The position numbers and the translations under genes are program-made. Of a stretch of 64,000 nucleotides of DNA, positions 45,855-59,758 are shown one piece after another. The DNA is from Desulfovibrionaceae bacterium (GTDB lineage: Bacteria > Desulfobacterota > Desulfovibrionia > Desulfovibrionales > Desulfovibrionaceae): positions 4,231-68,230 of the forward strand of contig JAWRKD010000130.1 in the NCBI GenBank assembly GCA_040307135.1. Direction: 5' to 3'. Each line of letters begins with the position of its first letter. Position 1 is the first letter of the stretch. The notes below the pieces were generated by a model. The model did not search any database. It had not been told where the DNA came from and saw nothing but the letters and a program-made list of their open reading frames with translations.

Positions 45855-47048
45855 ATGCGCGTCAGCACTTCCCAGATATTCTCGGCCTCCTTGAGCCAAA
45901 TCAACTCAGCGCTCTACGACGTGACCCGGCTGAACCTGATGAACTCCAGCCAGAAGAAGATCAACACGCCCTCGGACGACCCCGCGGGCATGGCCTCGGT
46001 GATCTCCCTGCGCGACTACTCCTCGTCCCTGGACCGCTACACGGACAACTGCACCGTGGCCGGCAACTACCTCTCCGAGGCCGACTCGGTCCTGAGCCAG
46101 ATCAGCGAGACCGTCACCTCCATCCTGGAGCTGGCCGAGCAGGGCTCCACCGGCACCTACACATCAGACCAGCTCCAGATGATGGCCGAGGAGATGGAGG
46201 GCTACCTGGAGACCCTCATGAGCCTGGCCAACTCCACCTTCGGCGACGACTATCTCTTCGGCGGCGACGAACTGGACTCCAGCGCCTTCAGCATGGGCCT
46301 GGGCGTCAGCGTGACCGGCGACGGGCTGACCAGCTCGGCCTCCTTCCTCTCGGTGAGCGGGTCCATCGACTCCGCGGTCATGGTGCGATTCACCGAGGAC
46401 GGCACAGTGGGGACGGACGCGCTGGACTACGAGTACTCCCTGGACGGCGGCGAAACCTGGACCGGGGCCACCCTGGCCTCCGGGGCCTCCACCCTGGACC
46501 TGGGCTCCTGCCAGGTGGAGCTGGCCGCCGGGATCGCGGTGAACGCGGCCGGCGACGACGAGGAGGGCACCGAATTCCTGGTGCGCGACGCCGTGTACTA
46601 CGAGGGCAGCGGCAAGGCCATGTCCGTGACCATCTCCGACGGGGTCAGCGTGGACATGACCAGCGTGGGCAGCGCGATCTTCGGCGGCCTGGACTCCACG
46701 GGAACGGCCTATTCCGGAGCCAACCTCTTCGAGGCCGTGGCAAAATGTCTGGCCTGCATGGAGGTGGGCGACGCCGATGGCGTGGCCGCCTGCCTGGACG
46801 GCATCAGCGCCGGGCAGGAGCGGATGCTGGCCGGGGCCTCCAGCGTGGGCGCCCGGGAGGTCAAGGTGACCAGCTTCGAGTCCAGCCTGAGCGTCATCTC
46901 GGAGGTGGCCACCAACAGCATCAGCTCGCTGGAGGACGCCGACGCCACGCAGATCCTGGTGGAGCTGGAGCAGGCCAACTACATCTACGAGGCCGTGCTC
47001 TCCTCCGCCTCGGACATCATGCAAATGAGCCTTTTGGATTACCTCTAG
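45855..47048 (+). CDS. flgL: Flagellar hook-associated protein 3 (FlgL)
   Basis: 397 aa. MRVSTSQIFSASLSQINSA...SSQKKINTPSDDPAG... has flagellin-like N- and C-terminal helices. It lies directly after flgK. Confidence 0.85.
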   Translation: MRVSTSQIFSASLSQINSALYDVTRLNLMNSSQKKINTPSDDPAGMASVISLRDYSSSLDRYTDNCTVAGNYLSEADSVLSQISETVTSILELAEQGSTGTYTSDQLQMMAEEMEGYLETLMSLANSTFGDDYLFGGDELDSSAFSMGLGVSVTGDGLTSSASFLSVSGSIDSAVMVRFTEDGTVGTDALDYEYSLDGGETWTGATLASGASTLDLGSCQVELAAGIAVNAAGDDEEGTEFLVRDAVYYEGSGKAMSVTISDGVSVDMTSVGSAIFGGLDSTGTAYSGANLFEAVAKCLACMEVGDADGVAACLDGISAGQERMLAGASSVGAREVKVTSFESSLSVISEVATNSISSLEDADATQILVELEQANYIYEAVLSSASDIMQMSLLDYL

Positions 47049-47060
47049 AGGAGGAACGCC

Positions 47061-48833
47061 ATGGCCTATGTCAGTTCCCTGTCCAGCGGCACGTCCGTTT
47101 ACACCTCCATCTCCACCTCCGGGGCCATCACCTTCTCGGGCCTGGGCAACGGCACGGACTTCAGCGAGATCATCGACGCCACGGTGGAGGCCGAGAGCTA
47201 CAAGCTGGACGCCTACGAAGAGGATCAGGAGGAGAAGGAGGCCATCGTCGAGCTTCTGGAAACCCTGAGCGACCTGATGGACGACCTCAACGAGACCCTG
47301 GAGGGATTGGACGAGATCGACGAGTTCCTGCCCATGACCACCACCGTGGAGGACGCCTTCACCGCCACGGCGGACGGCGACGCCACCCCGGGCACCCACA
47401 CCATCGTGGTGAACCAGCTGGCCCAGGCCGACGTCTGGGTGGACACGGCCTACGGCTTCTCCTCCGAAAACGAGGTGCTGGCCTCCTCGGCCACGACCTT
47501 CACCTTGTCCTACGCCGGAAAAGACATCACCCTGGACATCGCCGCGGGCACCACCATCGAGGGCCTGGTCTCGGCCATCAACACCTCCTCGTCCACCACT
47601 GGCAAGGTCACGGCCAGCCTGGTTTATGACGGCGAGTCCTACTACTTCACCCTGAGCGGGGACGACACCGGCGCGGACAACGCCATCGTCATCAAGGACA
47701 CGGGCACCCTCTCCGGCATGTCGGCCTCCGGCTTCACCAACACCCTGACGGCCCAGGACTGCCGCTTCAAGGTGGACGGCTTCCCCGCGGGCGACGACGC
47801 CTGGATATCCCGCGACACCAACGTCGTGGACGACGTGCTCACCGGCGTGACCCTGACCTTCACGGACACCACGGACAGCGCGGGCGAGACGCTCACCGTG
47901 AACTACGACACCGAGGCCCTGGAGGAGAACATCGAGACCTTCCTCGCCGAGGTGAACCAGATCATCCTCGAGATCCAGACCCTCACCGGCAGACTTGACC
48001 AGGATTACGAGAACGGGGACGCGGTGAGCACGGACACCGACGATGACGACGAGGACGACGAGGACGACGACATCGTCATCAAAAGCTCCACTCTGGACGC
48101 CATGTACAGCCAGATCAAGAGCATCCTCTCCTCCTCGGGGCTGGGGTTCAAGGCCTACGACGCGGACACCGACTCCGGCGACCTGTTCAGCACGCTGTCC
48201 CAGCTCGGCATCTCCACCGACACCGAGGAGGGCTCCGACACCTTCGGCCAGCTCCAGCTGGACACCGACACCCTGGAGGAGGCCCTGGACGCGGACCCGA
48301 CCGCCGTGGCCGCGCTCTTCTCGGTGAACGACGTGGCCGAGTCGGACAGCGACGCCCTGCAGGTCATCTCCCTGATCAAGACCGTCACCGCGCCCGGGAA
48401 CTACCAGGTGGAGTACACGGTGGAGAACGGCGCGCTCGTCTCGGCCACCATCAACGGAGAGCAGGCCCAGGTCAGCGGCTGGACCATCCTGGGCATCGAC
48501 GACGACTCCACCGGTCTCTACCTCCAGGTGGTGGACCAGACCGACGGCGACCATTCCGGCAGCGTGCGCGTGAAACAGGGCAAGATCGGCCAGCTCGCCG
48601 AGGCCATCTCGGACATGACCGCCGACGAGACCGGCACCCTGGCCATCCTCATCAGAAGCTACGAACAGGGCATCGACGACCTGGACGACCGCATCTACTA
48701 CGAGAGCGCGCGGCTGGACGCCCTGGAGACCAAGCTCACCTCCCAGTACGCCACCCTGGACGAGACCCTGTCCTACTACACCAACCTGGAGAGCAGCCTG
48801 AGCAGCCTGGTGGAATCGCTCTCCAGCGATTGA
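47061..48833 (+). CDS. fliD: Flagellar filament cap protein FliD
   Basis: 590 aa. ...ITFSGLGNGTDFSEIIDATVEAES...; C-terminal ...RLDALETKLTSQYATLDETLSYYTNLESSLSSL. It contains a poly-Asp/Glu insert. Confidence 0.9.
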   Translation: MAYVSSLSSGTSVYTSISTSGAITFSGLGNGTDFSEIIDATVEAESYKLDAYEEDQEEKEAIVELLETLSDLMDDLNETLEGLDEIDEFLPMTTTVEDAFTATADGDATPGTHTIVVNQLAQADVWVDTAYGFSSENEVLASSATTFTLSYAGKDITLDIAAGTTIEGLVSAINTSSSTTGKVTASLVYDGESYYFTLSGDDTGADNAIVIKDTGTLSGMSASGFTNTLTAQDCRFKVDGFPAGDDAWISRDTNVVDDVLTGVTLTFTDTTDSAGETLTVNYDTEALEENIETFLAEVNQIILEIQTLTGRLDQDYENGDAVSTDTDDDDEDDEDDDIVIKSSTLDAMYSQIKSILSSSGLGFKAYDADTDSGDLFSTLSQLGISTDTEEGSDTFGQLQLDTDTLEEALDADPTAVAALFSVNDVAESDSDALQVISLIKTVTAPGNYQVEYTVENGALVSATINGEQAQVSGWTILGIDDDSTGLYLQVVDQTDGDHSGSVRVKQGKIGQLAEAISDMTADETGTLAILIRSYEQGIDDLDDRIYYESARLDALETKLTSQYATLDETLSYYTNLESSLSSLVESLSSD

Positions 48834-48909: not shown

Positions 48910-49965
48910 CTAAGCCTTGGCCATGGCGGCGGCCTCGGCGCGGCGGGCCTTCCACATGGCGCCCAGGATGATGACCGCGCCGGTGAGCAGGGCCAGGCAC
49001 ATGAAACCGAAGCTCACGTTGCTCATGAGCTGGAGCGAGCCGTCGGAGACTTCCATAACGCCCAGCTGCACCAGATACTTGGGAATGGCGATGGCGCGGC
49101 TCACGGCCACCACGAGCATGATGGTGGCCATGACGGCCTTGATCATGTGTTCGCGCACGTAGGTGGTGCCGATGGCGCCCAGCTGCACGCCCAGGAGCGA
49201 GCCTGCCAGGATGATGAGCACCAGGCGGATGTCCACCATGCCGTGCATGGCCCAGTTGATGGAGCCGCCCAGGCCCATGATGAAGGCGATGACCAGCTCC
49301 GTGGCCGAGGAGACCAGGCTGGACGCGCCGATGACGTAGATCATGCCGGGCACGCCGATGAACCCGCCCACGGCGATGGTGGCGGCCAGCAGGCCGGTGG
49401 CGAAGCCGACGGGCACGGTGAACCACAGGGAGATGCGCAGGCCCGAGGTCTTGAAGGTGATCATGGGCCAGATCTCAAGCTTCTGGAGCCGCTTGGCCAG
49501 GGAGCTCGGCTTCTCCTCGCCGCCGCAGCGGCTGCACTTCACGGCGTCCATCATGACGTAGCCGCCCACGATGACCAGCACGGCCACGAAGGACAGGCTC
49601 ACGTAGAGGTCCGAGCCGGCCTGGCCCCAGCGGTTCAGAATGAACTGCTGGATCATGATGCCGATCTGCACGCCCACGCCCGCCGAGGCGGCCATGATCA
49701 GGCCCATCTTGATGTCCACCTGGCCGTAGCGGAAACGCTTGATGGCGCCCACCAGGGCCTTGGGGAACTTGTGGCACATGTTGCTGGCCACGGCCACGGT
49801 GCCGGGCACGCCCAGGCTCATCATGCCGGGGGTGAGCACGAAAGCGCCGCCCGAGCCGATGAAGCCGCTGACCAGGCCTCCGATGAAGCCCACGATGAAA
49901 AGGAAGCCCACCGCCTGAAAGTTCAGCTCGATGAACTTGGTGCTGTCGAGAAGCAAGGTTTCCAT
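48910..49965 (-). CDS. TauE/SafE (DUF81) family anion exporter membrane protein
   Basis: 351 aa. Two internal repeats with G-rich TM motifs (GFIGGLVSGFIGSGGAFVLTPGM... and GLLAATIAVGGFIGVPGM...). A central hydrophilic loop contains CSRCGG. Confidence 0.85.
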   Translation of the reverse strand: METLLLDSTKFIELNFQAVGFLFIVGFIGGLVSGFIGSGGAFVLTPGMMSLGVPGTVAVASNMCHKFPKALVGAIKRFRYGQVDIKMGLIMAASAGVGVQIGIMIQQFILNRWGQAGSDLYVSLSFVAVLVIVGGYVMMDAVKCSRCGGEEKPSSLAKRLQKLEIWPMITFKTSGLRISLWFTVPVGFATGLLAATIAVGGFIGVPGMIYVIGASSLVSSATELVIAFIMGLGGSINWAMHGMVDIRLVLIILAGSLLGVQLGAIGTTYVREHMIKAVMATIMLVVAVSRAIAIPKYLVQLGVMEVSDGSLQLMSNVSFGFMCLALLTGAVIILGAMWKARRAEAAAMAKA

Positions 49966-49992: not shown

Positions 49993-50283
49993 CTAGGCGT
50001 TGAGGGTGGCGCGGGGCTGCGGCCGGGTCTCGGCGCGCTTCTGGGCGCGGGCGCGGCTGGCTTCGATGCCCAGGCAGGTCCAGAGATTCGAGGCAAAGGC
50101 CCCGTGGGCGTAGGAGAACACGAAGACCGTCAGGATCGGGCCGGCGGCCCAGAAGGAACCCTGGGAGAACAGGGCCGTGAGCGCATCGCCGTGCGAGAAG
50201 GCCGCGGCATACAGGGCCGCGGAGAACAGTCCATAGAGTACGGTCTTGAGAACGGGCTTCTTGCCCCCGGTGGTCTGAGCCAT
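49993..50283 (-). CDS. Small hypothetical membrane protein (about 96 aa)
   Basis: ATG at 50283, 6 nt after GGAGG (an alternative ATG is at 50289). Two or three hydrophobic helices (VLKTVLYGLFSAALYAAAF..., WAAGPILTVFVFSYAHGAF). GC-rich third positions. No family recognised. Confidence 0.5.
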   Translation of the reverse strand: MAQTTGGKKPVLKTVLYGLFSAALYAAAFSHGDALTALFSQGSFWAAGPILTVFVFSYAHGAFASNLWTCLGIEASRARAQKRAETRPQPRATLNA

Positions 50284-50336: not shown

Positions 50337-50897
50337 TCAATCCACAGTGAACAGGGCCGAGGTGGCGCGGCCTTCCAGCCGGGCGCCCTCCCCTGGTTCG
50401 CTCAAGATGAGCTCCACGCGATGCAGATCGCGGCACAGGCCCTCGACCTCGGCCGGGGTGTCGCCGAAGCGCACCACGTGCCCCGCCTCCAGGCCCCGGT
50501 CCGTGGCCAGCAGGAGCCAGGGCCGGGCCTCTTCCCCGGCGCGGCGGGCAAAGCTTTCGCGCAGGTAGCTGTCCATCTGGCCGTCCGCAGCCTGGGACCC
50601 GGGGCTGCCCACGTTCAGGAAGACCAGGCCGTAGCCCAGGCGCTGGGCCAACCCCAAGGCGTATTCCGCCAGGCGCGGCGAAAAGGACGGGCCGTGCCCC
50701 AGCACGAGGATGCGCTTGCGGCCGGAACCGGCCCGGCGGATCACCCCGCCGGCCAGGGCCTGCTCGCCCGCCTCAGCCAGGGCCAGGGCCTCGGCATAGT
50801 CGTCCAGCCGTTCGCGGCGCATGCCGCCCGGCCGGACCTCAATGCCCCTGGGCCGGGATATCCCGGCCCAGATGCGCCTGGCGAAATTGCGGGGCAT
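50337..50897 (-). CDS. Hypothetical protein, possibly universal-stress-protein-like fold
   Basis: 186-aa ORF with GC-rich third positions. ...RKRILVLGHGPSFSPRLAEYALGLAQRLGYGLVFLNVG...WLLLATDRGLEAGHVVRFGD... The plus-strand 286-aa ORF over the same DNA looks like antisense noise. Confidence 0.5.
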   Translation of the reverse strand: MPRNFARRIWAGISRPRGIEVRPGGMRRERLDDYAEALALAEAGEQALAGGVIRRAGSGRKRILVLGHGPSFSPRLAEYALGLAQRLGYGLVFLNVGSPGSQAADGQMDSYLRESFARRAGEEARPWLLLATDRGLEAGHVVRFGDTPAEVEGLCRDLHRVELILSEPGEGARLEGRATSALFTVD

Positions 50898-50900
50898 GAA

Positions 50901-51074
50901 CTACTCCGCCCTCAGGGTGGCGCGGGTGCGCTTGTCCTTGCGGGTGTCCTTGCGGGCCTGGGGACGCTCGGCCTCCTCGCCCTTGGCCAGCTGAACGGCC
51001 TCTTCCTTGTTGCCGCGCTCGGCGAACGCCACGGCCGCGAACACGTCCTCAACCTGCTTTCTGATGGTCGCCAT
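50901..51074 (-). CDS. Small hypothetical protein (57 aa), not in the ORF track
   Basis: ATG at 51074 (RBS GGGAGAA). Translation is MATIRKQVEDVFAAVAFAERGNKEEAVQLAKGEEAERPQARKDTRKDKRTRATLRAE. The stop is 3 nt before the next gene's ATG. It replaces the listed 77-aa ORF 50912..51145, which is in another frame. Confidence 0.4.
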   Translation of the reverse strand: MATIRKQVEDVFAAVAFAERGNKEEAVQLAKGEEAERPQARKDTRKDKRTRATLRAE

Positions 51075-51115
51075 ACCGATTCTCCCGGTTTGATTGTTGC
51101 AACCGGCATGACCAT

Positions 51116-51132
51116 AACAAAGGCCGTGCCAA
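51116..51132 (-). promoter_or_regulatory. Sigma-54-like promoter (imperfect -12) for the small-protein/TauE operon
   Basis: The minus strand reads TTGGCACGGCCTTTGTT. The -24 element TGGCAC is perfect and the spacing is correct, but -12 is TTGT instead of TTGC. It lies about 42 nt upstream of the ATG at 51074. Confidence 0.3.
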
Positions 51133-51284
51133 ACCAGTTTTTCACGGCAATATTCTGAAATTGTTGATGATAAAAATTAAGGCGCCCCGGCAGCGTCGGG
51201 CCGGCTTGTTGCAGAAACGAACAAAAGGGAGTACGATTTGATTTATCTTATTGAAATACAAAGGACTCGCCCAAAAAAGGCTGC

Positions 51285-51319
51285 GTTCGGTATTGCAACG
51301 TGTGTTCGGTTGCGCAACG
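51285..51319. repeat. Tandem 16-nt direct repeats with palindromic TTGC..GCAA cores (candidate regulator binding sites)
   Basis: GTTCGGTATTGCAACG (51285-51300) and GTTCGGTTGCGCAACG (51304-51319) match at 13/16 positions. The second contains the 10-bp palindrome GTTGCGCAAC. A related GTTGCAAC is at 51096-51103. Confidence 0.35.
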
Positions 51320-51338
51320 CGCGGCCAGGGAGGGGGGC

Positions 51339-53348
51339 ATGATCTTCTTCCGAAAAAACGACGAGCCCGGACCTGCGGAGCAGGAGGGCCTGGAAGGCCT
51401 CAAGGCCAAGGCCCACGCCGCGGACCTGCCCGAGGCCACTCGCAAGGCCGTGGACGCCGAGTTGGAACGCCTGGCCAAGACCGACCCTTCCGTAGCCGAG
51501 TACGGCATCGGCGCCAACTATATCGAATGCCTCCTGGACCTGCCCTGGAACCGCCTGACCCAGGACAACCTGGACCTCAAGCGGGCCGAGGCCGTGCTCG
51601 ACGCCAGCCACGCGGGCCTGGGCCAGGTCAAGGACCGGGTCCTGGAGTACCTGGCCCAGCGGACCATGGCCGCGCGCCGCGCCCCCTCGGTGCTCGTGGT
51701 GGACGACGAGTCCATCGCCCGCAACAACCTCCGTCACATCCTCTCCCGCGAGGGCTACCAGGTGGAGGCCGCGGCCAACGGCGAGGAGGCCATGGAAAAG
51801 GTCCGGCGCTGGGAGTTCGACCTCATCGTCACGGACCTCAAGATGGACCACATGGACGGCATGACGCTCCTGGAGGAGGCCAAGAAGGTCTCGCCCGGCA
51901 CCAGCATCATGATCGTCACCGGCTACGCCACCGTGGACACGGCCGTGCAGGCCATGAAGACCGGGGCCGTGCACTACCTCTCCAAACCCATCGAGATCGA
52001 CGAGCTGCGCAACTCGGTGCGCGAGATCCTCAAGGGCAGCGCCCGGCAGTACGGCTCGCGCTCGCCCATCCTCTGTTTCGCGGGCCCCCCGGGCGTGGGC
52101 AAGACCTCGGTGGGCATGGCCGTGGCCGAGGCCCTGGGCCGCAAGTTCTGCCGCCTGTCCCTGGCCGACCTGCGCGACGAGGCCGAGCTGCGGGGCCATC
52201 GCCGGACCTACGTGGGCGCCCTGCCCGGCCGCATCATCCAGGCCATCCGCAGCGTGGGCGTGAAGAACCCCGTGTTCATGCTCGACGAGATGGACAAGAT
52301 CGCCCAGGACGCCAAGGGCGACCCGGCCTCGGCGCTCCTGGAGATCCTGGACCCCGAGCAGAACAGCCGCTTCCTGGACCGCTACCTGGACGTGCCCTTC
52401 GACCTCTCGGCCGTGCTCTTCATCGCCACGGCCAACGGCACGGCGCGGCTGGCCGGGCCGGTGCTCGACCGCATGGAGGTGGTCACCTTCTCGGGCTATT
52501 CCGAGGCCGAGAAGCTGGAAATCTCCCGCCGTTTCCTGGTGCCCCGCCAGCTGCGGGAGCACGGCCTGACCCAGCCCTTCCCGCCCTTCACGGACGAGGC
52601 CCTCTCGCGCATCATCCGCGAACACACCAACGAGGCCGGAGTGCGCGGCCTGGACCGTGAGATCGGCCGGGTCTGCCGCAAGCTGGCCCGATCCTGCCTG
52701 GAAAAGGGCCAGATCGGCTACCTGGGCGACATCACCCCGGAACTGGTGGCCTCGCTCCTGGGCCCGGCGCGCTTCAGCCACGAGGCCGCGGCGGGCGCCC
52801 CGCGGGTGGGTGCGGCCACGGGCCTGGTCTGGTCCGAGGCCGGGGGCGAGCTGGTCTCGGTGGAGGCCTCGCGCATGCCCGGCACGGGCCAGCTCCTGCT
52901 CACCGGCTCCCTGGGCGAGGTGCTCAAGGAATCGGCCCAGATCGCGCTCAGCCACATCCGCGGCAACGCCGGACGCCTGGGCGTGGACCCCGGGTTCTTC
53001 GCGGGCCAGGACATCCACATCCCGGCGGGCGGGGTGAGCAAGGACGGCCCCTCGGCCGGACTGACCATCGCCGTGGCCCTGGTCTCCCTGCTCACCGGCA
53101 GGCCGGTGCGCGCCGACGTGGCCCTGTCCGGCGAAATCTCCCTCTCCGGCCGCGTGCTCCGCGTGGCGGGCGTGCGCGAGAAGCTCCTGGCCGCGGTGCG
53201 CGGCGGAGTGCGCCAGGTTGTGCTGCCCGAGGAGAACGGAGCCGACGTGGAGACCCTGCGCCGCTCCTCCCCGGGCCTGCCCGAGGCCGTCCTGGCCCGG
53301 GACATCGACGCGGCCCTGGCCGCGGCCCTGGAAGGAGGCCACCCGTGA
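51339..53348 (+). CDS. Lon-family ATP-dependent serine protease lacking the N-terminal LAN domain and carrying an inserted response-regulator receiver (REC) domain
   Basis: ATG at 51339 (RBS AGGGAGGGG) gives 669 aa. Lon helical segment LPEATRKAVDAELERL...LDLPWN...GLGQVKDRVLEYLA. Then REC: VLVVDDESIARNNL...DLIVTDLKMDHMDG...IMIVTGY...YLSKP. Then Walker A ILCFAGPPGVGKTS, Walker B VFMLDEMDK, and the Lon_C domain with KDGPSAG (catalytic Ser) and GVREKLLAA (catalytic Lys). Confidence 0.9.
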   Translation: MIFFRKNDEPGPAEQEGLEGLKAKAHAADLPEATRKAVDAELERLAKTDPSVAEYGIGANYIECLLDLPWNRLTQDNLDLKRAEAVLDASHAGLGQVKDRVLEYLAQRTMAARRAPSVLVVDDESIARNNLRHILSREGYQVEAAANGEEAMEKVRRWEFDLIVTDLKMDHMDGMTLLEEAKKVSPGTSIMIVTGYATVDTAVQAMKTGAVHYLSKPIEIDELRNSVREILKGSARQYGSRSPILCFAGPPGVGKTSVGMAVAEALGRKFCRLSLADLRDEAELRGHRRTYVGALPGRIIQAIRSVGVKNPVFMLDEMDKIAQDAKGDPASALLEILDPEQNSRFLDRYLDVPFDLSAVLFIATANGTARLAGPVLDRMEVVTFSGYSEAEKLEISRRFLVPRQLREHGLTQPFPPFTDEALSRIIREHTNEAGVRGLDREIGRVCRKLARSCLEKGQIGYLGDITPELVASLLGPARFSHEAAAGAPRVGAATGLVWSEAGGELVSVEASRMPGTGQLLLTGSLGEVLKESAQIALSHIRGNAGRLGVDPGFFAGQDIHIPAGGVSKDGPSAGLTIAVALVSLLTGRPVRADVALSGEISLSGRVLRVAGVREKLLAAVRGGVRQVVLPEENGADVETLRRSSPGLPEAVLARDIDAALAAALEGGHP

Positions 53349-54792
53349 TCGCCCTGAGCCTGCCCATCCGCCACAAGGTGGCCCTGGGCATCGTGTCCGC
53401 CATGCTGGCCCTGGGGCTCCTGGGGGCCGTGTCCTACCACCACCTGGCCCAGATCGAGGACGCCCTGCGCCTGGCCGAGGTGGTGGACGACCTGGCCAAC
53501 GATATCCTGGAAGTGCGCCGCTACGAGAAGAACTACCTCCTCTATTCCCTGGAGGAGGATCTGATTGAGAGCCTGCGCTACGCCGACCTGGGCCTGGCGA
53601 GCATCGACCGCATCGCCCGGGACGAGACCGCGGTGCACACCTCCCGGACCGGAGCCGACGGCTTCGCCCGCCTGCGAATCCTGCTCCTGCGCTACAAGCA
53701 GGGCGTGCTCGAGCTGGCCGGCAGCAACGGCGCCAAGGCCGAACTGGAGACCGCGCGCAACGAGCTGCGCGAACACGGCAAGGCCCTGGTGGAGACCTCC
53801 CAGGGTTTCGTGGCCGAACAGCGCGAGGGCATCCTGCGCATCGTGAACAGCCTGAAGCAGCAGCTTCTGCTCTCCATCTGCGCGGCCCTGGGCCTGGGCC
53901 TGGCCTTCGCCTGGTTCGTGGGCCGCAACATCATCCAGGCCCTGCGCCTCATCAACCGCTCCACCACCCAGATCGCCCAGGGCGACTTCACGCCCCTGCC
54001 CGTGCCCCGCAGCCGCGACGAGACCCGCAACATGGCCGAGGCCTTCAACCGCATGATCGTGGAGCTGGAGAAGCGCCAGAACCAGCTGGTGCAGGAGAAG
54101 AAGCTGGCCTCCCTGGGCGTGCTCACCTCGGGCATAGCCCACCAGCTGAACAACCCCCTCAACAACATCTCCACCTCCTGCCAGATCCTGCGCGAGGAGG
54201 GGGTGGTCCGGGAGGACGAGTTCACCCGCGAACTCCTGGACAACATCTACCACGAGGTCCTGCGCTCGCGGGACATCGTGAAGGGGCTCCTGGAGTTCTC
54301 GCGGGTCACGGACTTCTCGCTCAAGCCCGTGTCCCTGGACGCCGTGGTGGAGCGCTCCATGCGCCTGGTGGCCAGTCAGCTCCCGGCGGGCGTCGAAACC
54401 GAGCGGAACATCCCGGCCGACCTCCTGGTGCCCATGGACGCCCAGCGCATGCAGGAGGTCTTCCTGAACCTGTTCATCAACGCCATGCAGGCCATGACCC
54501 CGCCGGGCCGCATCACGGTGCGGGCCGAGGCCGACGCGGCCCGGGGCCAGGCCGTGATCCGGGTGGAGGACACGGGCACGGGCATCAAGCCCGAGCACCT
54601 GGGCCGCATCTTCGATCCCTTCTACACCCTGAAGGAGGTGGGCAAGGGCACGGGCCTGGGCCTGTCCATCGTCTTCGGCATCATCAAGAAGCACGGCGGC
54701 ACCATCGTGGCCGAGAACCGCCAGGACCGCCAGGGCGCGGTGTTCACCATCCGCCTGCCCCTGGAGCGGCCGGAGCCCAAGGAGGTCTGCCA

Positions 54793-54796
<4 letters not shown>
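53345..54796 (+). CDS. Sensor histidine kinase (2 TM, HAMP, HisKA, HATPase)
   Basis: 483 aa. The GTG start overlaps the lon stop (GTGA). HAMP IIQALRLINRSTTQIAQGDF...MAEAFNRMIVEL; H-box LTSGIAHQLNNPLNNI; N box FLNLFINAMQAM; G boxes DTGTGI...GKGTGLGLSIV. Confidence 0.9.
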
Positions 54797-56151
<1,355 letters not shown>

Positions 56152-56238: not shown

Positions 56239-58209
56239 ATGGTTCTCTTCTGTTCCGGGATTGCGGTGCTCCTGGCCGGAGCCCTGTGCGCCTTCATCCT
56301 GGCGCGCCGCGACCAGGCGGCCAACGCCCTGGGGCCCTTGGCTGCGGCCCTGGGCTCGGGCCTCTGCCTGGCGGCCGGCGCCCTGGCCCTGGCAGGCGAC
56401 ACCTGGAGCCTGACCCTGGCCTGGGCCATGCCCGGGGCCTCCTTCCGCCTGGCCCTGGATCCCCTCTCCGGCTTGTTCCTGCTTCCGGGCGGCATTCTGG
56501 GCCTGGCCTCGGCATGGTCCGGCCACGCCGCGCTCAAGCACCACGACGGCGGCCTGGGTCCGCACTGGGGCTTCTTCAACCTGACGCTGGCCGCCTCGGC
56601 CGTGGTCTTCGCGGCCCGCGACTCTCTGCTCTTCCTCCTGGCCTGGGAGGTCATGTCCGTGGCCTCCTTTTTCTGCATCACCCTGGAGGACCGCGAGGAA
56701 CGGGTGCGCTCCGCGGGCTGGCTCTACTTCGTGGCCGCCCACCTGGGGGCCGCGGCCCTGCTGGCCCTGTTCCTGGTGCTGGGCTCGGCCGCGGGCGCGC
56801 AGGACTTCGCCGCCTTCTCCGGCCTGGGACTCACCGGCGGCACGGCCGCGGCCGTGTTCCTCCTGGCCCTGGCCGGGTTCGGCTCCAAGGCCGGATTCTT
56901 CCCCATGCACGTCTGGCTGCCCGAGGCCCATCCAGCCGCGCCGAGCCACATCTCGGCCTATCTTTCGGGCGCGCTCATCAAGGCCGGGCTCTACGGATTC
57001 TTGCGCGTGCTCACCTTCCTGGGGGCGCCGCCCACCTGGTGGGGCGGGCTCTGCCTGATCCTCGGCCTGGCCGGGGCCCTGCTCGGCATCCTCCTGGCCC
57101 TGGGCCAGGCCAACCTGAAGCGCCTGCTGGCCTACTCCAGCGTGGAGAACATGGGCATCATGCTCCTGGGCGTGGGCGTGGGGCTCCTTGGTCTGGCCAA
57201 CGGCGCGCCGCTGGCCGCAGGACTGGGATTCGCCGGGACGCTTCTGCACATGCTCAACCACTGCCTCATGAAGGGCCTGCTCTTCCTGGCCGCGGGCTCG
57301 GTGCTCCACGGCGCGGGCACGGTGCGCATGCCGCTTTTGGGCGGTCTGCTCAAGCGCATGCCGGCCACAGGCACGCTCTTCTGCCTGGGGGCACTGGCCA
57401 TCTGCGGCCTGCCGCCGGGCAACGGATTCTTGAGCGAACTCCTGCTCTACGTGGCCGCCGCGGGCTGGGCCAAGGGCCTGGGTCCGGCCCAGGCCGCCCT
57501 GCTCTGGGCCGCGGTGGTGGGTCTGGCCCTCACCGGCGGGCTGGCGGCCTTCGCCATGGTCCGGGCCTTCGGCCTGACCTTCCTGGGCGAGCCGCGCTCC
57601 GGCGTGGTGGACCACGCCCACGAGCCCGGCCCGGGCGAAGTCGGCCCCGTGGCCGCCCTGGCCCTGCTCTGCGGCCTGGCCGCGGCCGCCGCGCCCCTGA
57701 TCCTGGCCGGCATCTGGCCCGCCGCGGCCCAGCTGGCCCCGGTGGGCGACGCGCCCCTGGCCCTGGGCCGCAGCCTGCTCGGCGCCACGGTGGCGGCCCT
57801 GGCCGCGCTCCTGCTTCTGGTCCTGGCCGCGGCCCTGGCCCGCCGCCTGCTCCTGCGTGGCCGCAGCGTGGCCCAGGCCCCCACCTGGGGCTGCGGCTAC
57901 ACCGCCCCCACGCCCCGCATGCAGTACAGCCCGGCCTCGTTCTCGGCCGAGGCCGAGTCCATGGCCCGGCAGGCCACGGGCTACGTGGAGACGCGCCAGG
58001 ACCCCACGGGCTATTTCCCGGGCCGCTCCGGCTTCGCCTCCGCCTGCCGGGACCGCGTGCTGCACGGCTTGTTCGGCGCGCCCTTCGCCCGGCTGGCCCA
58101 GCTCTGCGACCAGTTCAAGGTCATCCAGCACGGCAGGACCCAGTTCTACATCCTCTACATCTTCGCGGCCCTGCTCGGGGTCCTGGCCTGGAGGGTCTGG
58201 CTGCCGTGA
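56239..58209 (+). CDS. HyfB/NuoL-like antiporter-type membrane subunit
   Basis: 656 aa, polytopic. WEVMSVASFFCI..., FGSKAGFFPMHVWLPEAHPAAPS...SALLSGALIKAGLYG..., LLAYSSVENMGIMLLG are Mrp/NuoL-family motifs. Confidence 0.9.
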   Translation: MVLFCSGIAVLLAGALCAFILARRDQAANALGPLAAALGSGLCLAAGALALAGDTWSLTLAWAMPGASFRLALDPLSGLFLLPGGILGLASAWSGHAALKHHDGGLGPHWGFFNLTLAASAVVFAARDSLLFLLAWEVMSVASFFCITLEDREERVRSAGWLYFVAAHLGAAALLALFLVLGSAAGAQDFAAFSGLGLTGGTAAAVFLLALAGFGSKAGFFPMHVWLPEAHPAAPSHISAYLSGALIKAGLYGFLRVLTFLGAPPTWWGGLCLILGLAGALLGILLALGQANLKRLLAYSSVENMGIMLLGVGVGLLGLANGAPLAAGLGFAGTLLHMLNHCLMKGLLFLAAGSVLHGAGTVRMPLLGGLLKRMPATGTLFCLGALAICGLPPGNGFLSELLLYVAAAGWAKGLGPAQAALLWAAVVGLALTGGLAAFAMVRAFGLTFLGEPRSGVVDHAHEPGPGEVGPVAALALLCGLAAAAAPLILAGIWPAAAQLAPVGDAPLALGRSLLGATVAALAALLLLVLAAALARRLLLRGRSVAQAPTWGCGYTAPTPRMQYSPASFSAEAESMARQATGYVETRQDPTGYFPGRSGFASACRDRVLHGLFGAPFARLAQLCDQFKVIQHGRTQFYILYIFAALLGVLAWRVWLP

Positions 58210-59117
58210 ACGCCCTGACCCTCTTCCATTTCGGCCTGGGCCTGGTCCTGGCCCCGCTGCTCCCGGGCGTCATCAACCGGGTCAAGGCGTTGTTCGGCGG
58301 CCGCAAGGGCAAACCCCTGCTCCAGCTTTACTTCGACCTGGCCAAGCTGGTGCGCAAGGGCGCGGTGTACAGCACCACCAGCACCTGGATCTTCAAGGCC
58401 GGTCCGCTCGTCGGCCTGGCCGCCCTGGTCCTGGCCCTGGCCTTCCTTCCCTTTGCCGGGGTGGACGCCCTCTGCTCCTTCCCGGGCGACGTCTTCCTCT
58501 TCGCCTACCTGCTCGGCCTGGCCCGCTTCTGCACCATGCTGGCAGCCCTGGACACAGGCTCCAGCTTCGAGGGCATGGGCGCGGCCCGCGAGGCCCTGTT
58601 CTCGGCCCTGGCCGAACCGGCCCTGGTCCTGGCCTTCCTCGTCTTCATCAGCCGCTCGGGCTCCCTGACCCTGTCGGCCATGCTCAAGTCCCCGGCCAAC
58701 ATGGACTGGACCCTGCACGGGCCGTCGCTTCTGCTCATCGCCGCGGCCCTGTTCCTGGTGCTCCTTTCGGAGAACTGCCGCATCCCCTTCGACGACCCCA
58801 ACACGCACCTGGAACTGACCATGATCCACGAGGTCATGGTCCTGGACCACAGCGGCCCGGACCTGGCCTTCATCCTCTACGGCGCAAGCCTCAAGCTCTG
58901 GATCTTCGCGGCCCTGCTCGTGAACGCCGTGGCCCCCTGGGGTGTGGCCAGCGACTGGCTGGACGGCCTGGCGGGCCTGGCCTGCGTGTTCCTGGTGGCC
59001 GTGGCCGTGGGCGTCATGGAATCGATCATGGCCCGCTACCGGCTGCCCCAGGTGCCCAAGGCCCTCACCGTGGCCGGGGCCCTGGCCCTCCTGGCCTTGG
59101 TGCTCACCTGGAGATAG
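58206..59117 (+). CDS. HyfC/HycD/NuoH-like membrane subunit
   Basis: GTG at 58206 overlaps the upstream stop (GTGA); 303 aa. ...LLPGVINRVKALFGGRKGKPLLQLYFDLAKL...SENCRIPFDDPNTHLELTMIHEVMVLDHSG are HycD-like motifs. Confidence 0.85.
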   Translation: MNALTLFHFGLGLVLAPLLPGVINRVKALFGGRKGKPLLQLYFDLAKLVRKGAVYSTTSTWIFKAGPLVGLAALVLALAFLPFAGVDALCSFPGDVFLFAYLLGLARFCTMLAALDTGSSFEGMGAAREALFSALAEPALVLAFLVFISRSGSLTLSAMLKSPANMDWTLHGPSLLLIAAALFLVLLSENCRIPFDDPNTHLELTMIHEVMVLDHSGPDLAFILYGASLKLWIFAALLVNAVAPWGVASDWLDGLAGLACVFLVAVAVGVMESIMARYRLPQVPKALTVAGALALLALVLTWR

Positions 59118-59119
59118 CG

Positions 59120-59758
59120 ATGCGGGAACTGCTCGACCCCCTGGCCACCTCGGTCATCCTGGCCAACCTGCTCCTGCTGGCCTGCAGCCGCCTGCGGGTG
59201 GGCGTGACCCTGGCCGCGGTCCAGGGCATCCTCTTGAGCCTCGCGCCCATGGCCCTGCCCCAGGCCGAGCCCAACCTGCAGCTGGCCGCGTTCTGCGTCA
59301 CGGCGCTCTGCGTCAAGGGCCTCATCTTCCCCTGGATGCTCATCCGCACCCTGCAGCGGGTCAAGGCCCGCCGCGAGATGGAGCCGGTGCTCGGCTACAA
59401 CCTCTCGGTGCTGGCGGGCATCGCCGGGCTGGTGCTGGCCATCTGGCTGCGCGGCCAGCTGGGCCTGACCGAGGCCCTGGCCCTGCCCGCCACCGCGGCC
59501 TTCATGACCGGCATCACCGGCTTCCTCCTCCTCATCATCCGGCGCAAGGCCATCACCCAGGTCATCGGCTACCTGGTGGCCGAGAACGGCATCTTCCTCT
59601 TCGGCACCCTGGTTTCGGCCCACGCCGAGATCTGGGTGGAGCTGTCCATGCTCCTGGACCTCTTCGTGGCGGTCTTCGTCATGGGCATCGCCATCCACAA
59701 CATCGGCCGCGAGTTCTCCTCCATCAACACCGACCGCATCGCGTCGCTCAAGGACTGA
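59120..59758 (+). CDS. HyfE-like (NuoK-related) membrane subunit
   Basis: ATG at 59120; 212 aa. Six or seven hydrophobic helices. ...ITQVIGYLVAENGIFLFG... is the HyfE family pattern. Confidence 0.8.
   Translation: MRELLDPLATSVILANLLLLACSRLRVGVTLAAVQGILLSLAPMALPQAEPNLQLAAFCVTALCVKGLIFPWMLIRTLQRVKARREMEPVLGYNLSVLAGIAGLVLAIWLRGQLGLTEALALPATAAFMTGITGFLLLIIRRKAITQVIGYLVAENGIFLFGTLVSAHAEIWVELSMLLDLFVAVFVMGIAIHNIGREFSSINTDRIASLKD

Follow-up and report, generated by a model that had tools for sequence, protein, structure and literature searches.

Introduction

The closest known counterpart of the locus examined here is DVU3303-3305 of Desulfovibrio (Nitratidesulfovibrio) vulgaris Hildenborough, which Rajeev et al. 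(2011) termed a 'three-component system' and for which they proposed a phosphorylation-dependent protease activity (PMC3333781). In this study, we analysed a 64,000-nucleotide stretch of DNA from a Desulfovibrionaceae bacterium (assembly GCA_040307135.1, contig JAWRKD010000130.1, positions 4,231 to 68,230 of the forward strand; hereafter the window), in which we find the same gene order as in D. vulgaris: a receiver-containing Lon protease, here called REC-Lon, a histidine kinase and a sigma-54 activator. We take REC-Lon to be the orthologue of DVU3303, on the grounds of architecture and gene neighbourhood and not of the DVU3303 sequence. An earlier sequence-only reading of the window knew of no characterised Lon with this architecture. 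That statement holds for biochemistry only, since both the architecture and the idea of proteolysis switched by phosphorylation were already published in 2011 (PMC3333781), and REC-Lon is a further member of that family. In the literature we searched, receiver-Lon fusions are treated in three D. vulgaris papers, and neither biochemistry nor a structure is reported for them. What is added here is a docking helix common to the receivers of Lon and of the activator, a divergent operon that accompanies REC-Lon in nearly every locus with enough upstream flank, and a similar C-terminal tail on two proteins of that operon.

The D. vulgaris system is induced by high pH, heat and stationary phase, and DNA affinity purification followed by array hybridization (DAP-chip) identified as targets of DVU3305 its own operon and DVU3302-3298, including the intergenic region that the two share (PMC3333781). 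The motif given for DVU3305 in the supplement of that study is a GTTGC-N(4-5)-GCAAC palindrome, and the top DAP-chip peaks include one adjoining DVU1336 (clpX) (PMC3333781). In D. vulgaris, clpX and the canonical lon gene lie near each other, and this peak may hint that the system also touches housekeeping proteases. Orthologues of DVU3305 occur in Thermodesulfovibrio, Thioalkalivibrio and Dechloromonas, and in most genomes with such an orthologue the activator is accompanied by an orthologue of DVU3303 (PMC3333781). A sigma-54 promoter was assigned to DVU3302-3298 and none to DVU3303-3305 (Kazakov et al. 2015, PMC4641369). More recently, DVU3303, DVU3304 and DVU3305 were found to have pairwise cofitness values above 0.9, with mutants in these genes being fitter in chlorate, a condition under which cells require the transporter DVU3299 (Trotter et al. 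2023, PMC10102598). Some genome records name the family protein 'response regulator receiver modulated ATP dependent protease'.

Results

REC-Lon Is a LonA-Derived Protease with a Receiver Inside Its ATPase Domain

The REC-Lon gene lies in an open reading frame (ORF) on the plus strand at 51300-53348, and when read from the ATG at 51339 it encodes 669 amino acids (51339-53348; recognized by ORF, Pfam, NCBIfam, phmmer and family searches). This ATG is the likely start because a Shine-Dalgarno sequence, GGGAGGGG, stands about 6 nt upstream of it and because the homologues share the resulting N-terminus, M-[IVL]-F-F-[RK]-[KR]. Only 264 nt of non-coding DNA precede the gene. From N- to C-terminus, the protein consists of a conserved tail, LonA helices, a CheY-like receiver, an AAA+ module, the Lon lid and the Lon_C protease domain. 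Pfam matches cover Response_reg (PF00072; residues 118-227, E = 5.2e-31, profile positions 1-110 of 111), AAA (245-385), Lon_lid (407-457) and Lon_C (465-664, E = 1e-62). The model for endopeptidase La (MEROPS S16; TIGR00763 in NCBIfam) is matched in two stretches split by the insert and barely passes its cutoff, at 621 bits against 608.05.

Comparison with E. coli Lon (phmmer against 6u5z) places REC-Lon residues 18-109 on E. coli residues 251-342 and residues 241-640 on residues 348-747, the second of these alignments, through the AAA+ module, lid and Ser-Lys protease domain, scoring 453 bits over 400 residues. The near residue-for-residue alignment with LonA and the intact Ser-Lys dyad that the sequence-only reading had described are thus borne out. 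Between the two aligned stretches, 131 residues (receiver plus linkers) take the place of a 5-residue E. coli loop just before Walker A; the earlier estimate of about 10 E. coli residues at this point was too high. Likewise, the helical segment had been thought to begin about 45 residues into the protein, but only 29 residues separate the ATG from 'LPEATRK'. Within the codons of this gene, the retained LonA helices (residues 18-113; phmmer and model) occupy 51390-51677, the receiver (residues 117-233; Pfam, alignment and model) 51687-52037, a ten-residue linker to AAA+ strand beta-1 (residues 234-243) 52038-52067, the AAA+ module with the Lon lid (residues 244-457; Pfam, phmmer and alignment) 52068-52709, and the protease domain (residues 465-664; Pfam, phmmer and alignment) 52731-53330. 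The alignment further locates the phospho-acceptor Asp166 (the Asp of IVTDLKMD) at 51834-51836, Walker A (GPPGVGKTS, residues 249-257) at 52083-52109, Ser572 (KDGPSAG) at 53052-53054 and Lys615 (REKLLAA) at 53181-53183.

REC-Lon is a LonA-derived AAA+ Ser-Lys protease from which the N (LAN) domain and the greater part of the helical domain, HI(CC), have been lost. No match to LON_substr_bdg (PF02190, the LAN domain) is found in REC-Lon by Pfam at E <= 0.01, in agreement with the earlier claim that LAN is missing. That claim had put the loss at roughly 300 residues, whereas about 235-250 residues are gone and three helices are kept. These are the last three helices of HI(CC), corresponding to E. 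coli residues 251 to about 305, and the long coiled-coil helix is absent. In truncated LonA structures, the retained three-helix bundle overlies the pore (PMC6722904). In the nomenclature of the same work, REC-Lon also keeps alpha-12 (E. coli residues 331-341), the first helix of the nucleotide-binding (NB) domain. The receiver, which is of the NtrC/AtoC type and which the sequence-only reading proposed to sit at the substrate-entry face of the AAA+ ring, is attached after alpha-12 and not within the three-helix bundle; it is inserted inside the NB domain, between this first helix and strand beta-1, which leads to Walker A (E. coli residues 356-363).

An AlphaFold2 monomer model, computed from a 34-sequence alignment, has a predicted local distance difference test score (pLDDT) of 78 and a predicted TM-score (pTM) of 0.66. 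It renders residues 117-233 as a canonical (beta-alpha)5 fold, with five strands alternating with five helices at a block pLDDT of 73-89. About 3 residues join this fold to helix 98-113, and a linker of about 10 residues, modelled with low confidence, connects it to AAA+ strand 244-248. As a whole, the model reaches a TM-score of up to 0.88 against LonA chains, normalized to the target. Together with the Pfam match, this fold confirms the complete CheY-like receiver before Walker A that had been read from the letters.

A Compact Family with Invariant Catalytic and Phosphorylation Residues

The architecture is widely represented in other genomes. A search of 5.8 billion proteins listed at least 120 clusters, at 59-98% identity, and every one of those listed combines PF00072 with Lon_C in proteins of about 670 amino acids (some about 750). 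They come mostly from sulfate reducers and their relatives, isolates and complete genomes included, with Desulfovibrio aminophilus as the closest named relative (87% identity); other sources are Thermodesulfomicrobium, Humidesulfovibrio, Thermodesulforhabdus norvegica and, on a 4.3-Mb contig, Nitratidesulfovibrio liaohensis. Species genomes of GTDB yield 32 loci with a receiver-bearing Lon, distributed over Desulfovibrionales, Desulfomicrobium, Syntrophobacterales, Desulfomonile, Desulfobacca and Desulfobacterales. An exhaustive search of representatives at 50% identity adds one more full-length member (P0121, 54% identity) and fragments. Judged by these sequence searches, the family is compact.

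An alignment of 34 family members underlies the following counts. In the receiver, D122, D123, D166, T194, Y213, K216 and P217 are invariant in 34/34 sequences, so that the acidic pocket, the phospho-acceptor Asp, the switch Thr and Tyr and the conserved Lys expected of a receiver are all present. The same holds for the AAA+ residues (Walker A, Walker B D316/E317, pore-loop Y291, sensor-1 N366, Arg finger R378 and sensor-2 R436) and for the protease dyad of Ser572 and Lys615. Because the phospho-chemistry of the receiver and the catalytic residues of Lon are all invariant, selection on function is indicated. The two linkers that flank the receiver show no insertion or deletion in any of the 34 sequences. 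Length variation occurs elsewhere: Nitratidesulfovibrio members, at about 61% identity to REC-Lon, are about 80 amino acids longer through insertions after residues 11, 460 and 550.

These data also dispose of the possibility that REC-Lon is an assembly or annotation fusion of a response-regulator gene and a truncated lon, a reading invited by the unusual domain order and by an old TIGR annotation of DVU3303 as 'ATP-dependent protease La, truncation'. The sequence-only reading had called for a search for the architecture across genomes, and the outcome is a conserved family: the same continuous arrangement recurs in the clusters and GTDB species genomes counted above, from many independent assemblies with contigs of 1.4-4.3 Mb among them, the junctions are free of indels, and the receiver lies within the Lon reading frame with Lon sequence on either side. 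We therefore consider a fusion artefact refuted, with next to no probability left to it.

The extreme N-terminus is conserved as well. The hexapeptide (MIFFRK in REC-Lon, 51339-51356, located by alignment; residues 1-15 have pLDDT below 50) conforms to M-[IVL]-F-F-[RK]-[KR] in 34/34 homologues, with F3 and F4 invariant, and is predicted to be disordered. Behind it comes a spacer of 11-36 residues, acidic and rich in proline. A conserved N-terminal peptide is odd in a protein without an N domain, and its role could be that of a docking element or pseudo-substrate on a tether.

Two further groups of Lon proteins came up in these searches. Proteins P0122-P0138 were considered as hybrid kinase-receiver-Lon fusions, which was ruled out, as they have tandem AAA and Lon_lid repeats and no receiver; at 890-1,380 amino acids (one of 3,865), with two or three tandem AAA plus Lon_lid modules ahead of a single Lon_C, they seem to form a multi-AAA Lon architecture of their own. 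In addition, seven receiver-less Lon loci (L037, L039, L042, L050, L052, L057 and L076), from Planctomycetota, Gamma- and Alphaproteobacteria, match over about 1,660-1,800 nt, where the match in other canonical LonA loci extends over about 1,570 nt, and may carry a shorter insertion in the same span.

The Kinase, the Activator and a Shared Receiver Surface

REC-Lon is the first gene of a lon-kinase-activator operon, in which each stop codon overlaps the next start by 4 nt. The second gene (53345-54796, plus strand) encodes a membrane histidine kinase with two transmembrane (TM) segments, recognized by eye, and with HAMP, HisKA and HATPase_c domains (Pfam). The third (54793-56151, plus strand; REC, Sigma54_activat and HTH_8 by Pfam) encodes the sigma-54 activator, the counterpart of DVU3305. 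In most loci with enough flank, the kinase-activator pair, or part of it at a contig end, lies within about 7 kb of REC-Lon, and its side and orientation relative to REC-Lon vary between loci.

The receivers of Lon and of the activator are 52% identical and 77% similar, and they align without gaps. The Lon receiver falls in the NtrC/AtoC/ZraR subfamily, with ZraR (E = 4.5e-26) and AtoC (E = 2.1e-25) as best matches and NtrC1 as the best match in the PDB. Receivers dock with their kinases mainly through helix alpha-1. In this helix, the pattern IAR.NL.h.L is at least 80% conserved both in Lon receivers (n = 30) and in receivers of the partner activators (n = 23), and it is not conserved in this way among 16 other receivers from the same loci. 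A helix alpha-1 common to both receivers argues for a shared kinase and an ancient receiver duplication. The comparison thus points to one kinase serving the receivers of Lon and of the activator.

The Divergent Operon and Its Control Region

Upstream of REC-Lon, four genes are transcribed in the opposite direction (minus strand). They encode a small conserved protein of 57 amino acids with an AFAERG motif and a basic tail (50901-51074), a Usp-domain protein (50337-50897; Pfam), a protein of 96 amino acids with two hydrophobic helices and no Pfam family (the 2-TM protein; 49993-50283), and a TauE/SafE-family anion transporter (48910-49965; Pfam), the counterpart of DVU3299. The divergent operon of D. 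vulgaris, with its Usp, membrane and hypothetical proteins and its TauE-type transporter DVU3299, matches this arrangement. Among the neighbours of REC-Lon, the TauE gene is the most conserved, at 67-84% identity across related loci compared to 54-74% for REC-Lon itself. The TauE and 2-TM genes show the tightest linkage to REC-Lon: where the upstream flank is long enough, nearly every locus has them. The same gene context, kinase-activator pair included, is found at the most divergent member (L081) and at a locus reached from the 2-TM protein (L084).

In loci of the Syntrophobacterales and Desulfobacterales type, a Usp-like domain and the 2-TM protein form a single ORF of 254-304 amino acids, about 250-1300 nt upstream of REC-Lon on the minus strand (L006, L008, L011, L016, L018, L025, L027 and L030). 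Since the two are fused in these loci, the Usp and 2-TM proteins of the window may act together.

We scanned the window for GTTGC-N5-GCAAC, allowing up to two mismatches. Five of the 24 matches, each with 2 mismatches, fall in the 230-bp divergent intergenic region (51089-51318), where about 0.09 would be expected (Poisson probability about 4e-8, a figure that must be read with two of the sites overlapping and the region being more AT-rich than the rest). These consensus matches are candidate binding sites for a DVU3305-type activator. The only near-consensus sigma-54 site of the region, TGGCACGGCCTTTGTT (51116-51131, minus strand, 1 mismatch), points into the divergent operon. A sigma-54 promoter for REC-Lon was considered and dropped. 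The plus-strand candidate GGGCCGGCTTGTTGCA has 3 mismatches, and when 31 related loci were scanned with the consensus, no sigma-54 site recurred consistently upstream of REC-Lon, in agreement with the published lack of such a promoter in the lon operon of D. vulgaris (PMC4641369). In both organisms, then, the activator motif stands in the shared intergenic region and the sigma-54 promoter, in the window a promoter-like site, on the divergent operon only. Neither sigma-70 promoters nor terminators were found when the intergenic region was searched for them.

Similar C-Terminal Tails on Two Divergent-Operon Proteins

The 57-amino-acid and 2-TM proteins are different proteins, and they share a basic, proline-rich C-terminal tail that approximates [KR]-P-R-x-[TS]-L-x-A. 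For the small protein it reads ...RTRATLRAE in the window and ...RPRPTLKA in L007; for the 2-TM protein it reads ...RPQPRATLNA in the window, ...KRPEVRATLNA in L004, L005, L026 and L032, and ...RPRPRLRVNA in L010. A first regular expression was over-fitted to the tails of the small proteins and was replaced by a simpler descriptor, itself post hoc: RP or PR in the last 12 residues together with an ending L-x(1-2)-A followed by at most one further residue. Of the 44 members of the two families, 17 satisfy this descriptor, as do 10 of the 3,114 remaining ORFs of these loci; the counts do not give a true probability because the family members are related by descent. The fused Usp-2-TM proteins end instead in ...KRPRAYAYVNPFHRI, which is found in 9 cases and in 0 other ORFs. 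The tails may be recognition tags.

Neighbouring Genes in the Window

Directly downstream of the activator, an operon on the plus strand (56239-59758) encodes the membrane subunits Proton_antipo_M (656 amino acids) and NADHdh (303 amino acids) and a membrane protein of 212 amino acids, and looks like a formate hydrogenlyase or a Hyf/Ech-type hydrogenase. A [NiFe] hydrogenase operon also adjoins the REC-Lon locus L081. Linkage of REC-Lon to hydrogenases, seen in the window and in L081 and absent from L001-L032, was treated as coincidental. On the other side, beyond the TauE operon, flagellar genes (45855-48833, plus strand) encode a Flagellin_N-domain protein of 397 amino acids, which is probably FlgL (hook-associated), and FliD, the filament cap (590 amino acids). 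An ORF of 699 amino acids (51243-53342, minus strand) lies antisense to REC-Lon over its full length, and long antisense ORFs of this kind overlap neighbouring genes as well; we take these to be spurious, as they are typical of DNA with about 70% G+C.

Discussion

The explanation that we favour, and that we consider probable with some reserve, is that REC-Lon is a LAN-less receiver-Lon working within a branched kinase circuit, in which phosphorylation of Asp166 would switch its ATPase and protease activities. The membrane kinase would phosphorylate two paralogous receivers, those of Lon and of the sigma-54 activator, and so provide a branched output. The phosphorylated activator would turn on the divergent membrane-stress operon (small protein, Usp, 2-TM and TauE) from its sigma-54 promoter, while phosphorylation of REC-Lon would most likely control the hexamer by allostery or through its assembly, much as receivers of the NtrC family act on their AAA+ rings. 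This route is suggested by the two short linkers of fixed length that tie the receiver to the ATPase core. Gating by phosphorylation is plausible, as it is consistent with the invariant phospho-residues, the fixed linkers, the shared helix alpha-1 and the high cofitness of the three genes in D. vulgaris (PMC10102598). The likely substrates can be narrowed by comparison with an engineered truncation of Meiothermus taiwanensis LonA (MtaLonA AAAP, residues 242-793), whose boundary is the same as that of the Lon body of REC-Lon. In the truncated enzyme, ATPase and peptidase activity stay at the wild-type level and casein is degraded, but damaged folded proteins are not (PMC8087443). For this reason REC-Lon is unlikely to be a general quality-control protease, and it would act instead on disordered or specifically tagged substrates.

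Several points weigh against this explanation or limit it. The literature we searched contains no phosphotransfer, ATPase or protease measurement for any family member. Phosphorylation could either activate the protease or inhibit it. A monomer model cannot reveal contacts between subunits or the placement of the receiver in the hexamer. Finally, the cofitness in D. vulgaris could arise from polarity, because the Lon gene comes first and insertions in it could silence the kinase and the activator.

Alternatively, the receiver may be a built-in adaptor that replaces LAN as the docking site for substrates or adaptors, with phosphorylation altering delivery and not the motor, as a fused equivalent of RssB or CpdR on ClpXP. 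A protein without LAN needs some other recognition element (PMC8087443), the alpha4-beta5-alpha5 face of the receiver is invariant at T198, V199, A202, V203, A205, Y213, L214, K216, P217 and R224, and the neighbouring genes encode proteins with conserved tails that are candidate clients. Yet much of the conservation of this face is also found in the receiver of the partner activator and so may be inherited rather than specific, and linkers that are short and constant in length point to a mechanical link with the ATPase core. We regard the adaptor as unlikely on balance, although it agrees with the data and would also be compatible with allosteric gating. A more elaborate proposal, which we hold to be distinctly doubtful, is that REC-Lon is a dedicated, phosphorylation-triggered protease for co-regulated clients, in which the C-terminal tails of the soluble 57-amino-acid protein and of the 2-TM protein would serve as a tag in place of LAN, and MIFFRK, on its variable spacer, would be a tethered pseudo-substrate or docking element released by the receiver upon phosphorylation. 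A single kinase would in that case govern how a small membrane-stress module is made, by way of the sigma-54 activator, and how it is cleared, by way of REC-Lon.

The fitness pattern, with the caveat of polarity, bears on two other possibilities. If the receiver were a phosphate sink that tunes phosphorylation of the activator by competition, with a Lon body that is constitutive or incidental, its loss should give the opposite mutant phenotype, yet the three D. vulgaris genes share one pattern. Branched two-component systems with sink receivers are known elsewhere, and a kinase-docking helix common to both receivers is what such a sink would have; but the ATPase and protease catalytic residues are all invariant, fixed linkers would be unnecessary, and we judge a sink to be improbable. 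Similarly, phosphorylated REC-Lon might degrade the kinase or the activator to end the response. REC-Lon is co-transcribed with these putative targets, and Lon degrades signalling proteins elsewhere, such as FixT in Caulobacter. Nevertheless, loss of a protease acting in this way should not mimic loss of the activator, as it does in the fitness data, and the tightest linkage is to the TauE and 2-TM operon, whereas the kinase-activator pair varies in position and orientation. Such feedback seems to us no less improbable than the sink.

The outputs of two-component systems are almost always transcription, second-messenger turnover or chemotaxis. With a receiver built into the motor of an AAA+ protease, such a system would have regulated proteolysis among its direct outputs, and REC-Lon would be well suited to show how a Lon hexamer can be governed by a small switch domain. 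The hypothesis is directly testable, because the family is compact and conserved, DVU3303 is genetically tractable and has a chlorate-stress phenotype, and the partner genes are obvious.

The AAA+ module, lid and protease domain of canonical LonA (E. coli Lon, 6u5z; M. taiwanensis LonA, 4ypl and 7fd4) align with those of REC-Lon residue for residue, and the three-helix bundle before the ATPase is common to both. Unlike these enzymes, REC-Lon has neither the N (LAN) domain nor the long coiled-coil helix, and it carries a 117-residue receiver before Walker A. Among proteins that couple a receiver to AAA+ proteolysis, the ClpXP adaptors RssB and CpdR link two-component phosphorylation to degradation, as is proposed for REC-Lon, but they act in trans as separate proteins, whereas the receiver of REC-Lon is covalently built in. 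The similarity of the Lon receiver to CpdR is generic receiver similarity.

Extra domains inside the NB domain are also found in the archaeal, membrane-anchored LonB and in HslU. In these proteins, the insertion site lies between Walker A and Walker B. The insert there is a membrane anchor or an I domain, whereas that of REC-Lon is a signalling receiver at another site. Inserted 'I domains' have been noted as a general feature of AAA+ proteins (PMC6722904). The closest analogy is with the NtrC-family activators (NtrC1, AtoC and ZraR; 1ny5 and 1zy2), because REC-Lon has an NtrC/AtoC/ZraR-type receiver directly before its AAA+ core on fixed linkers, as these activators have a receiver of the same subfamily directly before an AAA+ ring ATPase. 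In the NtrC family, phosphorylation controls ring assembly. The ATPase of these activators remodels sigma-54, whereas that of REC-Lon belongs to a Lon unfoldase-protease; moreover, unlike in the NtrC family, the linker of about ten residues in REC-Lon has no coiled coil, and the receiver is internal, with Lon helices on its N-terminal side.

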